Shown piece by piece: positions 24,889 to 27,985 of a DNA stretch of 64,000 nt (within the stretch, counting starts at the first letter, position 1; each line of letters starts with the position of its first letter). Origin of the DNA: a virus (Duplodnaviria; Heunggongvirae; Uroviricota; Caudoviricetes); IMG/VR virus record IMGVR_UViG_3300036769_000253; one strand, given 5' to 3'. The position numbers and the translations under genes are program-made. Under the pieces are notes generated by a model, which was given only the letters and a program-made list of their open reading frames with translations, had not been told where the DNA came from and made no database searches.

Positions 24889-25350
24889 ATGTTAGAATTT
24901 ATTGTGAAATATTGGATTGAGTTTTTGTTTGGACTTATCGTTACGGGTGGAGGAATCTTCTTAAAACGATATGCGGAGTTAGTAAAAAAAGAACAAAAAG
25001 CTCAACAAAATGAATTCTATAGTAAACTGAAAGCCGAGATATCAGATAGTTATCAACAGTCTCAATATGACGATAAGGTTCTCCAGGGAGAGATTGATGA
25101 CTTAAAAGACGAATTGAATTGTTTAAAGAAGGGAATTTTGTCTCTTCAAGGGCGTCAATTCAAACAAGCATGTATTATGTTACTTAATGAAAATCATGAC
25201 ATTTCTTTAGAAGAGTATCAAGAAATTGATAATGATCATGATGCTTATAATGGGTTAGGTGGTAATCACAATGGAGATCGTTTATTTAATTTAGTCAAAA
25301 AGAAGGCTGAAAGGACTTTAACAGTTACTACAGATGAAGCTGATGAATAA
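24889..25350 (+). CDS. Holin-like/lysis-associated membrane protein
   Basis: N-terminal hydrophobic helix, coiled coil and a Y..LGGN motif often seen in Firmicutes phage lysis regions. Confidence 0.5.
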   Translation: MLEFIVKYWIEFLFGLIVTGGGIFLKRYAELVKKEQKAQQNEFYSKLKAEISDSYQQSQYDDKVLQGEIDDLKDELNCLKKGILSLQGRQFKQACIMLLNENHDISLEEYQEIDNDHDAYNGLGGNHNGDRLFNLVKKKAERTLTVTTDEADE

Positions 25351-25352
25351 AC

Positions 25353-25395
25353 AAAAAAATGGGAAGAACTATAAAAGTTCTTCCCTTATTTTTTT
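25353..25395. terminator. Bidirectional intrinsic terminator at the strand switch
   Basis: GGGAAGAACT-ataaa-AGTTCTTCCC flanked by an A tract and a T tract between convergent genes. Confidence 0.9.
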
Positions 25396-25819
25396 ATGCT
25401 AATTTAGAAGCAAGTACAGCTATCTTCTTTTGTAGCAGTTGTTTTTCTTCTGGAGATGCAGTGGATGCCATTTCCATTACATCTTTTTGAAGCTCATTGA
25501 TATAGCCTTCAAGGTGTTGCATTGAAAGAATTGGGTCATTACTCATTTTTTTAACTTCTTTATATTCGTGATAATGTTTTTCAATAGGTCTATCTTCTTT
25601 CATTGTGTGCGGTTGATAGGCATCATGATGCGTCATAATTTCTTCTGAATCTGATTCTTCCATTGCTTTTACAATGCTGCAATAATACATTGTTTCAGCA
25701 ATATCTTTAATCATATCTACAACTTCGCCTAATTCTTTAGTATCTGCGCACTGTGGATTTTCTAATTCCATTTCCACTTGTTCCATAAGCATTTTTTTCA
25801 TTCTTTTAAGATCTTTCAT
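25394..25819 (-). CDS. Cassette gene 5: helical protein with His-rich centre, unknown function
   Basis: Start abuts the upstream stop (TAAATG); predicted all-alpha. Confidence 0.75.
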   Translation of the reverse strand: MKDLKRMKKMLMEQVEMELENPQCADTKELGEVVDMIKDIAETMYYCSIVKAMEESDSEEIMTHHDAYQPHTMKEDRPIEKHYHEYKEVKKMSNDPILSMQHLEGYINELQKDVMEMASTASPEEKQLLQKKIAVLASKLA

Positions 25820-26239
25820 TTACGCCACCCTTTCAACAATTAAATTAGCATTTTGAACTAAGATAGATTGTGTTGAAGTATTTTTAATACTAACTTGAGA
25901 GCAGCATCCTTTTGGGACATCAATAAAAATTGCGCCAGATACTGAATTATAATCATCAACTGCTCCAGGAGTAGAAATCATCATTGAAGAAGCAATAGGT
26001 TCTCCATCAATAGTAATTGCTACCGAGATTGAATCAGCTGTGCCACCTGTTGGAACTGCTATATTACATCCAAAAGTGACTCTGTAACGAGCTCTGCATT
26101 GTTGCGTTAGACCGCGCAAATTAACAAGCCCGCTTCCACTTCTATGGAGAATACTGCAGTTACCTTCAACCGCAGTATTCGTAAATAATATATCTTGATT
26201 AGCTGCTACTGTTTGAGCTGTTGTCGCAGTAATTTCCAT
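25820..26239 (-). CDS. Cassette gene 4: beta-sandwich protein, possibly BclA-CTD/C1q-like
   Basis: Alternating beta-strand pattern, 5 Cys, QNANLIVERVA ending; fold assignment is tentative. Confidence 0.6.
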   Translation of the reverse strand: MEITATTAQTVAANQDILFTNTAVEGNCSILHRSGSGLVNLRGLTQQCRARYRVTFGCNIAVPTGGTADSISVAITIDGEPIASSMMISTPGAVDDYNSVSGAIFIDVPKGCCSQVSIKNTSTQSILVQNANLIVERVA

Positions 26240-26266
26240 AAATACAAATCTCCTTTACTTATTTAC

Positions 26267-26983
26267 TTAACAACTACATCCATTAGAATAAGCTGCATAT
26301 GGACTACCCGTCAAATATGCAGGAATTGGACATGGACGAAGTTCATTTACTAAGTAAGCGTTCTGAGCGCATTGAGATAACTGGAAGTTAGCTGACTGTA
26401 GCTCATTATTCTTAGCTTCTAATCTATCACGTAACTCTTGCATTGTGTTAGCATTAATTAAAGCTCTTGTTTGTTCAGCTTCTTCTCTAATTGCTTGAGT
26501 TATTTCACAAGTATTTCGAGAATTATCATATCTAACTGCATCTATATTGCGGTTTGTATCACAGCAACAAGACTGCATTGCATAACGATTATCAGCTAAG
26601 TTAGCGTTTACTGTATTAAAACCTTGTGCAACAGAACTAAATCCTGTACACAAATCACGTTGCACGTTACCAAAATTGGTCAATAGAGTTGTGTTGTTAG
26701 TATAGAATCCATCACAAAGTCCTTGCTGAACTCCTCTAACACCATTTTCTACATTCTGGAAGTTTAAGTCTTGACTTAAATCTGCTCTAGTTAAGGCGCC
26801 CTGAGTTGCAGCTGAATTAGCTCCATTACCCCAGTTGCCTCCCCAACCTCCGCCCATAAAGACGAATAAGAATAGGATTATAATCCACCAAGCTCCCATG
26901 CCATCTGTCCAGCCAGCTTCTCCACGATTTCCAGAAGCAGCTGCAATATCTGATAATGAATATCCTGAACCTTGATTAAACAT
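26267..26983 (-). CDS. Cassette gene 3: membrane-anchored Cys-rich coiled-coil protein
   Basis: WWIIILFLFVFM hydrophobic segment, Gly/Trp linker, long N/Q-rich heptad region, 10 Cys including CCC and terminal GCSC; RBS AGGAGG. Confidence 0.8.
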   Translation of the reverse strand: MFNQGSGYSLSDIAAASGNRGEAGWTDGMGAWWIIILFLFVFMGGGWGGNWGNGANSAATQGALTRADLSQDLNFQNVENGVRGVQQGLCDGFYTNNTTLLTNFGNVQRDLCTGFSSVAQGFNTVNANLADNRYAMQSCCCDTNRNIDAVRYDNSRNTCEITQAIREEAEQTRALINANTMQELRDRLEAKNNELQSANFQLSQCAQNAYLVNELRPCPIPAYLTGSPYAAYSNGCSC

Positions 26984-27003
26984 ATTGGTTCCTCCTTTTA
27001 AAA

Positions 27004-27243
27004 TTATCTGAGGCCAAGCATTTGTTTAAAATTACTAAATTCTTGGTCAAAATCTACACCTCTCTGTTGGCATAAATTTCTAGCTAATTGTTCAATACCT
27101 TTTGTATCATTAGCTTGCGCCATACTTAAGAGGTTGTTACCCATAGGAGTTCCCTGCATTTGGCTTAAAAGATTCATCATTAATTGTTGTGGGTTTCCGC
27201 CATTTCTAATTAATTGAATAAACTGCATAGGATTAATATTCAT
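27004..27243 (-). CDS. Cassette gene 2: small Met/Gln-rich helical protein
   Basis: 79 aa with 8 Met and 12 Gln, NP-x-Q motifs; RBS AGGAGG. Confidence 0.75.
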   Translation of the reverse strand: MNINPMQFIQLIRNGGNPQQLMMNLLSQMQGTPMGNNLLSMAQANDTKGIEQLARNLCQQRGVDFDQEFSNFKQMLGLR

Positions 27244-27255
27244 TATATTACCTCC

Positions 27256-27714
27256 TTAAAAGTTTAAGTTTAATGGCTCTTTTGATTTTTCTTGTTCAGC
27301 TTTTTGCGGTTGCGGCTCGCTCATCGGGGTCGTCGATGCCGTAGAAGGTTGACTTAAAAAACTTTTTAATTGAGTCATAGCTATCTCAAATTCTTCTCGT
27401 GTTACATAAGCAGAACTATTCAACGGTGGTTCAACAGGCATTTCTTTCAATTCGTACATGTTTAGTGTGGCTGTGCCATCCATATTTATCTGCTTTGTGT
27501 AAATTTTTTTATTTGCCAAATCTGGGAAATAAAAAATCGAACCATCAAAATCTATTGTAGCAGCTCTCGCTTCTTCAATAGATGATACAGGTCTACCTTT
27601 TACAGTCGCCATCATCTGAGGACGCATCATTGAAGAAGGACTCTGCATCTGATTTTGATAGTATTGAGTTTGAGGTTGCATTTGGTTATAATAGCTATTA
27701 TTTGTAGGATACAT
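27256..27714 (-). CDS. Cassette gene 1: Q/Y/P-rich N-terminus, small beta domain, YVTREEF helix
   Basis: RBS GAAAGGA; low-complexity ends around a compact core. Confidence 0.75.
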   Translation of the reverse strand: MYPTNNSYYNQMQPQTQYYQNQMQSPSSMMRPQMMATVKGRPVSSIEEARAATIDFDGSIFYFPDLANKKIYTKQINMDGTATLNMYELKEMPVEPPLNSSAYVTREEFEIAMTQLKSFLSQPSTASTTPMSEPQPQKAEQEKSKEPLNLNF

Positions 27715-27840
27715 AAAAAGTATACTTCCTTTCTGTAAGAAAATTTTTCTCTCTTTCTTACATTATATATTGATTTTTGAATGGGCAAAATTTTAAAATA
27801 AAACCCTGAAATGTTGCATAAACTTTTCTCAAAAATTTTA

Positions 27841-27951
27841 AATACTTTTATAAAATTTATACAAAAGTATTAAACCGATCGGTTTAACACGCTATATGTT
27901 TTGTATACTTTGAACAAAAATATATTATAGATTTTTGTTAAAAATGAACAA
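27841..27951. promoter_or_regulatory. Palindrome-rich control region with candidate minus-strand promoter
   Basis: Perfect 18-bp palindrome TTAAACCGATCGGTTTAA (27870-27887); imperfect inverted repeat 27841-27871; minus-strand TTGTTC-16-TATAAT (27951-27924). Confidence 0.45.
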
Positions 27952-27957
27952 AAAAAT

Positions 27958-27985
27958 AAGGGAACCTCAATTAAGAGGTTCCCTT
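27958..27985 (-). terminator. Intrinsic terminator at the end of the tail/holin transcript
   Basis: AAGGGAACCTC-aattaa-GAGGTTCCCTT 11-bp stem overlapping the holin stop; T tract on the minus strand. Confidence 0.85.

Follow-up and report, generated by a model that had tools for sequence, protein, structure and literature searches.

The cassette examined here consists of five small genes, g1 to g5, carried on the minus strand of a tailed phage (Caudoviricetes) deposited as IMG/VR virus record IMGVR_UViG_3300036769_000253. The window, which is the whole 64,000-nucleotide stretch of DNA that was analysed, corresponds to bases 74358-138357 of this complete 175,638-bp record with direct terminal repeats. 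The cassette lies between the holin gene and a strand switch, at the end of the structural arm and past the tail fibre genes. It is real, autonomous, mobile, dispensable and very widespread, and these conclusions are firm. The model we propose for its products, an accessory structural assembly of stalk and knob located at the infected cell's envelope, is a tentative one. The features of the locus are the following:

27958-27985, minus strand: upstream boundary; intrinsic-terminator-like hairpin (stem of 11 bp, T run) in overlap with the holin gene at its 3' end
27715-27957, minus strand: AT-rich regulatory spacer of about 240 nt with ten inverted repeats
27748-27767, minus strand: window copy of the promoter-like box, degenerate (TATAAT at 27767-27762, then GTAAGAAAG)
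27256-27714, minus strand: g1, 152 amino acids (aa), phrog_21718
27004-27243, minus strand: g2, 79 aa
26267-26983, minus strand: g3, 238 aa, phrog_16490
25820-26239, minus strand: g4, 139 aa, phrog_20016
25394-25819, minus strand: g5, 141 aa
25361-25385, both strands: bidirectional terminator-like hairpin forming the downstream boundary, common to the convergent plus-strand arm

An initial annotation of the window had described five tightly coupled genes, each with a ribosome-binding site, between two terminators, and its coordinates and gaps are exact. The intergenic gaps measure 12, 20, 27 and 0 nt, a purine-rich Shine-Dalgarno sequence stands 5-12 nt 5' of each gene, and TAA is the stop codon of all five. 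The palindrome-rich upstream region that it had pointed out is accounted for by the ten inverted repeats of the spacer, and both boundary hairpins were recovered as terminator-like, 2.2 such hairpins being expected per region. With its own promoter-like box and a terminator on either side, the cassette is the self-contained unit that had been claimed, separate from the neighbouring operons.

Conservation and mobility of the cassette

The five genes are real and not chance open reading frames (ORFs), since they have thousands of homologous clusters: at least 4027 for g4 and at least 7007 for g3 (both at 90% identity), none of which carries a Pfam domain or an informative name. An exhaustive profile search with the g1 core returned 2282 representatives (50% identity). 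The initial annotation had expected the gene order to be conserved across phages and had set beforehand, as the finding that would speak against it, a failure of the genes to co-occur. They do co-occur: all five are present in the same order in 66 of the 80 IMG/VR viral loci retrieved through g4 (tblastn), with the holin just upstream in 54 of these 66. Partial sets were also found, g2-g5 in seven loci, g3-g5 in four and g3-g4 in two. When loci are retrieved independently through the holin, 53 out of 72 contain the full cassette and 15 lack every cassette gene. In three related loci (L197, L170 and L207), the holin is directly followed by the convergent arm encoding a membrane protein, RuvC and dUTPase, which is the layout of the window minus 2.3 kb; the cassette is therefore a discrete and dispensable insertion.

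Order and tight coupling persist down to about 30% sequence identity, and the same succession recurs in unrelated backbones: a g1-like, a g2-like and a g3-like gene, a gene for a small beta protein and, in those that have one, a g5-like gene. The cassette lies past the lysin, towards the regulatory/integrase region, in Butyrivibrio phage Ceridwen and Dulem virus 33, adjoins the integrase in Dulem virus 39, and is found among the early genes, a few kb past amidase and holin, in the Clostridium perfringens phages CPD1 and XP41-N3. Relatives of g3 stand just downstream of the lysis genes in Crassvirales cr115_1 and cr116_1, and proteins annotated 'spike protein/glycoprotein' in several Crassvirales match the C-terminal half of g3; the first 50 kb of phiCrAss001, lysis and capsid genes included, gave no g3 match. 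The literature that we searched contains no paper describing the cassette and nothing usable on the virion proteomics of the carrier phages.

Mutually related endonuclease-like ORFs (about 205-265 aa, with a Cys-rich N-terminus) interrupt the cassette at different points in two cultured phages: in Ceridwen (L001 5476-6270) the ORF separates g4 from the g5-like gene, in CPD1 (L085 5424-6047) the g2-like gene from the g3-like one, which suggests that homing elements target the module. These insertions hint that the cassette matters to the phage, though it is clearly dispensable. Other genes are associated with the cassette in relatives. A gene for a small HExxH protein follows g5 in many of them (L054 6939-7325; L219 5488-5817); in L219 it follows the holin, the cassette being wholly missing. 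In Ceridwen and Dulem virus 33, g1 is preceded by a gene whose conserved product of 125 aa contains Cys and His residues and is papain-like by eye (L001 3032-3409, L002 2337-2717); the cassette of the window has neither of these two genes. In some relatives, a 235-aa ORF that is response-regulator-like by eye is inserted on the opposite strand between holin and g1 (L054 3653-4360, minus strand).

The genome that carries the cassette has the tail, tail-fibre and holin genes typical of tailed phages. Its minus-strand arm encodes giant tail-module proteins, a 1407-aa fibre, a 190-aa protein and the holin (phrog_13712, E 6e-30). The last base of the plus-strand replication arm is 25350, and the last gene of this convergent arm (24889-25350, plus strand) specifies a protein of 153 aa that combines a membrane segment at the N-terminus with a coiled coil; this gene still adjoins the holin in the cassette-less L197, L170 and L207. 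No tyrosine or serine integrase is encoded in the 175.6-kb genome, so that the carrier phage looks virulent. NlpC/P60 (G000:C1:29844-30116) is the only peptidoglycan-hydrolase family in the genome, where Amidase_2/3, GH25, CHAP, M23 and SLT gave no match. It belongs to a 456-aa open frame at genome position 29.8 kb, outside the window and about 70 kb from the holin, which is probably the endolysin, encoded far from its holin. The existence of this frame led to the rejection of the proposal that the cassette makes up for an absent endolysin.

The 68 matches in species-representative genomes are all on contigs of metagenome-assembled genomes (MAGs), mostly labelled Clostridia (Oscillospiraceae, Acutalibacteraceae, Ruminococcus, Lachnospiraceae), and hint at a Clostridia host range. 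In 59 of 83 related loci, the cassette contains in-frame TAG codons, mostly opposite Gln in the window proteins. Judged from this correspondence, the TAG-bearing relatives read TAG as Gln and the window phage uses the standard code. These relatives fall within L009-L083, an example being L054 (3226-7325), with TAG in both cassette and holin. Per 1000 codons, the cassette has 10.8 TAG, against 11.0 for the tail/holin arm and 7.1 for the opposite arm. The cassette does not stand out by this density, and the proposal that TAG recoding marks it as late is unusable.

Upstream box and RNA contigs

In about 26 distinct relatives, a 20-nt promoter-like box of consensus TTTCATATAnTAATGAAAGG is located 50-57 nt before the g1 start codon, and a second block, TTGGCAAA, lies about 30 nt further upstream. 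This two-block element occupies 27748-27790 (minus strand) in the window and is found about 50-90 nt upstream of g1 in L026, L079 and others; the upstream block of L019 forms an inverted repeat. Similar boxes occur at 11 other places in the related loci, and by this recurrence the box is probably one class of general phage promoter. Its -10 part (CATATAAT / CATATACT) resembles the mother-cell sigma E/K box of Clostridioides difficile (PMC3789822). A sigma K/E promoter was considered and judged too weak a reading: the C of the box is kept in only about 10 of the 26 distinct instances, and no conserved AC or ATA -35 element was found across them.

The stretch is present in 13 animal-gut metatranscriptomic runs. 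Contigs from four of these RNA libraries span the cassette between 25420/25463 and 27749, the latter position, just downstream of the box, being their end point in three of the runs; no contig bridging to the flanks at either end was seen among the listed pieces of the four runs. Contig depth, which cannot rank expression, is 13-31 over the cassette and 0-13 over the flanks. Since these are assembled contigs and the libraries may contain DNA, they give a weak hint of a separate cassette transcript.

Proteins of the cassette

The most conserved member of the cassette is g4, which retains 58-76% identity where g3 and g5 fall to 30-40%. Its AlphaFold2 model is confident (predicted local distance difference test, 89.5) and forms an all-beta sandwich with the TNF/C1q jelly-roll topology. 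A comparison with the C-terminal domain (CTD) of BclA and with C1q had been suggested by the initial annotation, and the fold obtained is indeed of this type. Foldseek returned 109 matches in the PDB at E<=1e-3, headed by F-BclA, ExsFA/BxpB and BclA, with EDA/TNF ligands below them. The best solved match is the F-BclA CTD (9h38; template modelling score, TM, 0.78), followed by ExsFA/BxpB (7r1m, 8d02, 9h3d; TM 0.74-0.76) and BclA (1wck; TM 0.70), all with a probability of 1.0. The Atlas model agrees (TM 0.88 to BclA_C/collagen proteins), and in BFVD the fold recurs as free-standing proteins of 130-145 aa from sipho-, myo- and podo-type gut phages. The 139-aa protein has no GXY repeats and no collagen-like stalk, and possesses five cysteines; the CC at 112-113 is invariant and the C-terminal end conserved. 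No g4 relative of 245-2000 aa, the length that a fused form would have, was found, which is weak evidence. By analogy with its fold, g4 would be a trimer.

In the C. perfringens phages and in Crassvirales, the protein that follows g3 is beta-rich, Cys-bearing and 125-136 aa long (L085 4338-4715, minus strand; L088 4313-4723), and may be a structural analogue of g4. The N-terminus of the CPD1 protein carries a Cys cluster reminiscent of endospore-appendage connectors.

The earlier description of g3 as a membrane-anchored, Cys-rich coiled coil agrees with its architecture. Its single hydrophobic segment, residues 28-46 (Kyte-Doolittle 1.87), has a G/W/N-rich flank and is the sole strongly hydrophobic one among g1-g5; there is no second segment and no C-terminal transmembrane anchor. 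The protein contains ten cysteines, with an invariant CCC at 139-141; also conserved are its N-terminal peptide and its Pro-rich tail, which ends in Cys-x-Cys. The length of the coiled coil varies through large insertions, while both ends and the CCC stay conserved. A diverse g3 profile matched influenza HA2 with an E-value of 3e-4, across the hydrophobic/GW-rich segment and the long helix, and a narrower g3 profile gave no HA2 match. We treat this likeness as an architectural resemblance and not as homology, and composition alone may explain it; it probably accounts for the 'spike protein/glycoprotein' label in Crassvirales. A further observation concerns the region 26690-26893 of the window: the RNA-library contigs of all four runs break in the 5' part of g3 (26709-26740), and the sequence of their loose ends there differs, suggesting that the sampled animals harbour several variants of g3.

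The three other proteins contain low-complexity segments. g1 begins with a Q/P/Y-rich disordered N-terminus, continues with a conserved three-strand beta meander (about 60-88) and a helix (106-121), and has a variable tail ending in F. Fold searches of g1 gave nothing above noise (Foldseek against the PDB and AFDB clusters, and a wide VIA alignment), and a GerQ-like reading of the protein was dropped for this lack of support. Only small stand-alone proteins, without a domain-fusion clue, figure among the 150 best matches listed for the g1 core, and no profile similarity links g1 to a cr116_1 protein. g2 is Q/N/M-rich and helical, with a conserved C-terminal half. g5 is helical as well, its conserved N-terminal and C-terminal helices enclosing a variable low-complexity middle that is Y/R/G/S-rich in relatives. 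Of the initial protein descriptions, those of g1, g3 and g4 hold; the term 'His-rich' was an overstatement for g5, which has six His in 141 residues, none of them conserved.

Searches of g1, g2 and g5 profiles against solved structures gave nothing meaningful. The absence of enzyme and replication motifs noted at the outset extends to families: g1-g5 match nothing in Pfam and NCBIfam, only families of unknown function in PHROGs, and no PADLOC-DB defence model at E<=0.01, so that no enzyme, defence or replication signature appears in any of the five. Outside g3, hydrophobicity remains low (maximum KD19 <=1.12), and g1, g2, g4 and g5 have no hydrophobic N-terminus such as a lipoprotein signal requires, although the lipobox motif itself was not searched.

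Proposed assembly model and rival explanations

The model to which we give tentative preference combines the architecture of g3 with the fold of g4. The cassette, an autonomous, moron-like operon, moves among gut phages, usually landing just past the lysis genes, and would be transcribed from its own promoter-like box up to the bidirectional terminator. The g3 protein would provide the stalk, a coiled coil that is probably trimeric and held by its hydrophobic anchor; this stalk differs in length from phage to phage and has conserved cysteine clusters. As a TNF/C1q trimer of the ExsFA/BclA-CTD kind, g4 would cap the stalk or dock onto it. The g1, g2 and g5 proteins would act as assembly or scaffolding helpers. 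Four of the five proteins have no export signal, so that the cytoplasm or the inner side of the membrane would be the place of assembly, and exit from the cell would depend on the holin lesion or on lysis. Located at the cytoplasmic membrane or envelope, it would be active during infection in surface masking, phage exclusion or the remodelling of the envelope at the time of lysis, these being the likeliest roles. The pairing of g3 and g4 is attractive because of a precedent in which the ExsF trimer binds the Pro-rich leader peptide of fibre proteins (PMC12357932), and the joint conservation of g4 and of the g3 tail would fit such a pairing.

Several observations weigh against this model. The kinship of g4 with BclA/ExsFA-type proteins is one of fold only, at about 14% identity, since g4 matches no Pfam family even at E<=1, BclA_C (PF18573) included, and its profile finds no BclA, ExsF or C1q chain among PDB sequences. 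The protein that follows g3 in CPD1 and cr116_1 shows no profile similarity to g4. The charges of g3 give no readout of its topology. The g1, g2, g4 and g5 proteins have no signal peptide, so that an assembly at the surface needs a stalk facing the cytoplasm, release through the holin or lysis. The RNA data, as assembled contigs from libraries that may include DNA, cannot rank expression. Furthermore, known exclusion and masking functions typically depend on single proteins, and a five-gene structural set would be unusually elaborate.

The rival explanations account for some of the same observations. The foremost among them, though an unlikely one in our estimation, makes g3 and g4 an optional decoration of the virion, that is, a dispensable fibre and knob of the whisker, head-fibre or neck-fibre type whose assembly g1, g2 and g5 would chaperone. 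Phage fibres indeed commonly carry TNF/C1q knobs on trimeric stalks, g4 also matches the tail proteins of cyanophages A-1(L) and A4 in Foldseek, BFVD lists collagen-C1q phage proteins, and Atlas features put g4 near the tail-needle knob of Sf6. The position of the cassette at the end of the structural arm, past the tail fibre genes, and the coverage of the operon by RNA-library contigs agree with it, and the dispensability of Hoc, fibritin and the phi29 head fibres would fit the presence/absence polymorphism. On the other hand, a strong terminator separates the cassette from the structural transcript and the cassette has its own promoter box; its spread over sipho-, myo- and podo-type genomes, reaching early and integrase-proximal sites, is hard to square with docking onto a single capsid or tail; the hydrophobic segment of g3 is of the membrane type; and the lack of fused fibre-plus-g4 forms argues weakly in the same direction. 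An accessory role in lysis or egress, in which g3 and its partners would act after the holin by disrupting or fusing an outer envelope layer, like spanins or class I fusion proteins, or by tuning the timing of lysis, ranks next and appears rather improbable. In 54 of the 80 g4-retrieved loci the holin directly precedes the cassette; lysis genes likewise stand upstream in Ceridwen, Dulem virus 33 and Crassvirales cr115_1/cr116_1. With its anchor, coiled coil and cysteines, g3 has features typical of an i-spanin, and both the HA2 match of the diverse profile and the annotation of the Crassvirales relatives point the same way. Yet the post-lysis region is a classic cargo site of Firmicutes phages, which makes adjacency alone a weak argument, and the HA2 match is lost with the narrower profile. 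The likely hosts, by the MAG labels, are monoderm Clostridia that need no spanin, neither a lipoprotein partner nor a muralytic domain is present, close relatives lyse without the cassette, and a probable NlpC/P60 lysin is encoded elsewhere in the genome.

The five genes could also be functionally separate small proteins, for instance host-takeover or anti-defence factors, that are transferred together and merely share an operon. Four of the five lack a recognisable fold or family and partial sets do occur, but order and tight coupling are kept at 30% identity and in unrelated phage backbones, and the proteins have a structural character (coiled coil, jelly roll, low-complexity tails); we regard this explanation as improbable. 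The possibility that a sporulating Clostridia host takes the proteins up into its coat or exosporium, or that they imitate these layers, an idea already raised by the initial annotation, is the least probable of all and very unlikely. It could draw on the nearest solved folds of g4, all of them exosporium or endospore-appendage proteins, on the Cys-rich partners, which recall lattices of the ExsY/CotY/CsxA type, on the Clostridia labels of the MAGs and on the sigma E/K-like -10 part of the box. The box lacks its C in most instances and recurs elsewhere in related loci as a general phage promoter class would, and no relation to coat or exosporium families was found at the sequence level. Nor did any evidence of a link to spores emerge: g3 relatives are found in Crassvirales, whose Bacteroidota hosts do not sporulate, and the phage has no integrase.

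Could g3 and g4 together be a phage-encoded haemagglutinin (HA)-like spike, membrane-active and deployed from inside the infected cell in both monoderm and diderm gut bacteria? In this bolder version, to which we assign a small chance, g3 would be the trimeric stalk with a fusion-peptide-like hydrophobic/GW-rich segment and g4 the jelly-roll head, the two being possibly disulfide-linked. If so, phages would possess a new type of apparatus for envelope remodelling or exclusion, with no relation to holins, endolysins or spanins.

In conclusion, our observations place the cassette among the commonest multi-gene units of unassigned function in gut phages, present in sipho-, myo- and podo-type genomes and extending, through g3, into Crassvirales. 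Solving its function would assign a large block of viral 'dark matter' and explain the recruitment by phages of an exosporium-type fold; it would possibly reveal a new way in which phages alter the envelopes of Clostridia and other gut anaerobes. The question lends itself to direct testing, as Butyrivibrio phage Ceridwen and a number of C. perfringens phages are carriers in culture.

Among known systems, phage morons, or lysogenic-conversion cargo downstream of the lysis genes, share with the cassette an own promoter-like box, flanking terminators, a post-lysis or integrase site and presence/absence among syntenic relatives. The cassette differs in being an order-conserved, structural-looking set of five genes and not a single one; moreover, it is found here on an apparently virulent 175-kb phage, and its benefit must therefore lie in the lytic cycle. 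The i-spanins of the lambda Rz type and influenza HA2 resemble g3 in their hydrophobic segment, long coiled coil and conserved cysteines, and the g3 gene is near the holin. In contrast to an i-spanin, g3 has no lipoprotein partner and nothing points to a diderm host for the window phage; in contrast to HA2, it has no C-terminal membrane anchor, and the match was not reproduced with the second profile.

The CTD of BclA and F-BclA (PF18573; 1wck, 9h38) is the best structural match of g4 (TM 0.70-0.78), and gut-virome proteins of the same fold and size are sometimes automatically named 'BclA protein'; g4 differs in not being fused to a collagen-like stalk and in escaping detection at the level of PF18573. 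The remaining comparison is with ExsFA/BxpB of the Bacillus cereus-group exosporium (7r1m, 8d02, 9h3d). At about 11-12% identity and without a Pfam/HMM match, g4 is distinguished from it by being phage-encoded outside any sporulation context, and its putative partner is an anchored coiled coil instead of a collagen-like protein with an exosporium leader. Both are nevertheless stand-alone TNF/C1q-type jelly rolls of about 140-170 aa without a collagen stalk, the ExsF trimer docks the Pro-rich end of a fibre protein, and the g4 gene adjoins that of the fibre-like g3 with its conserved Pro-rich end.

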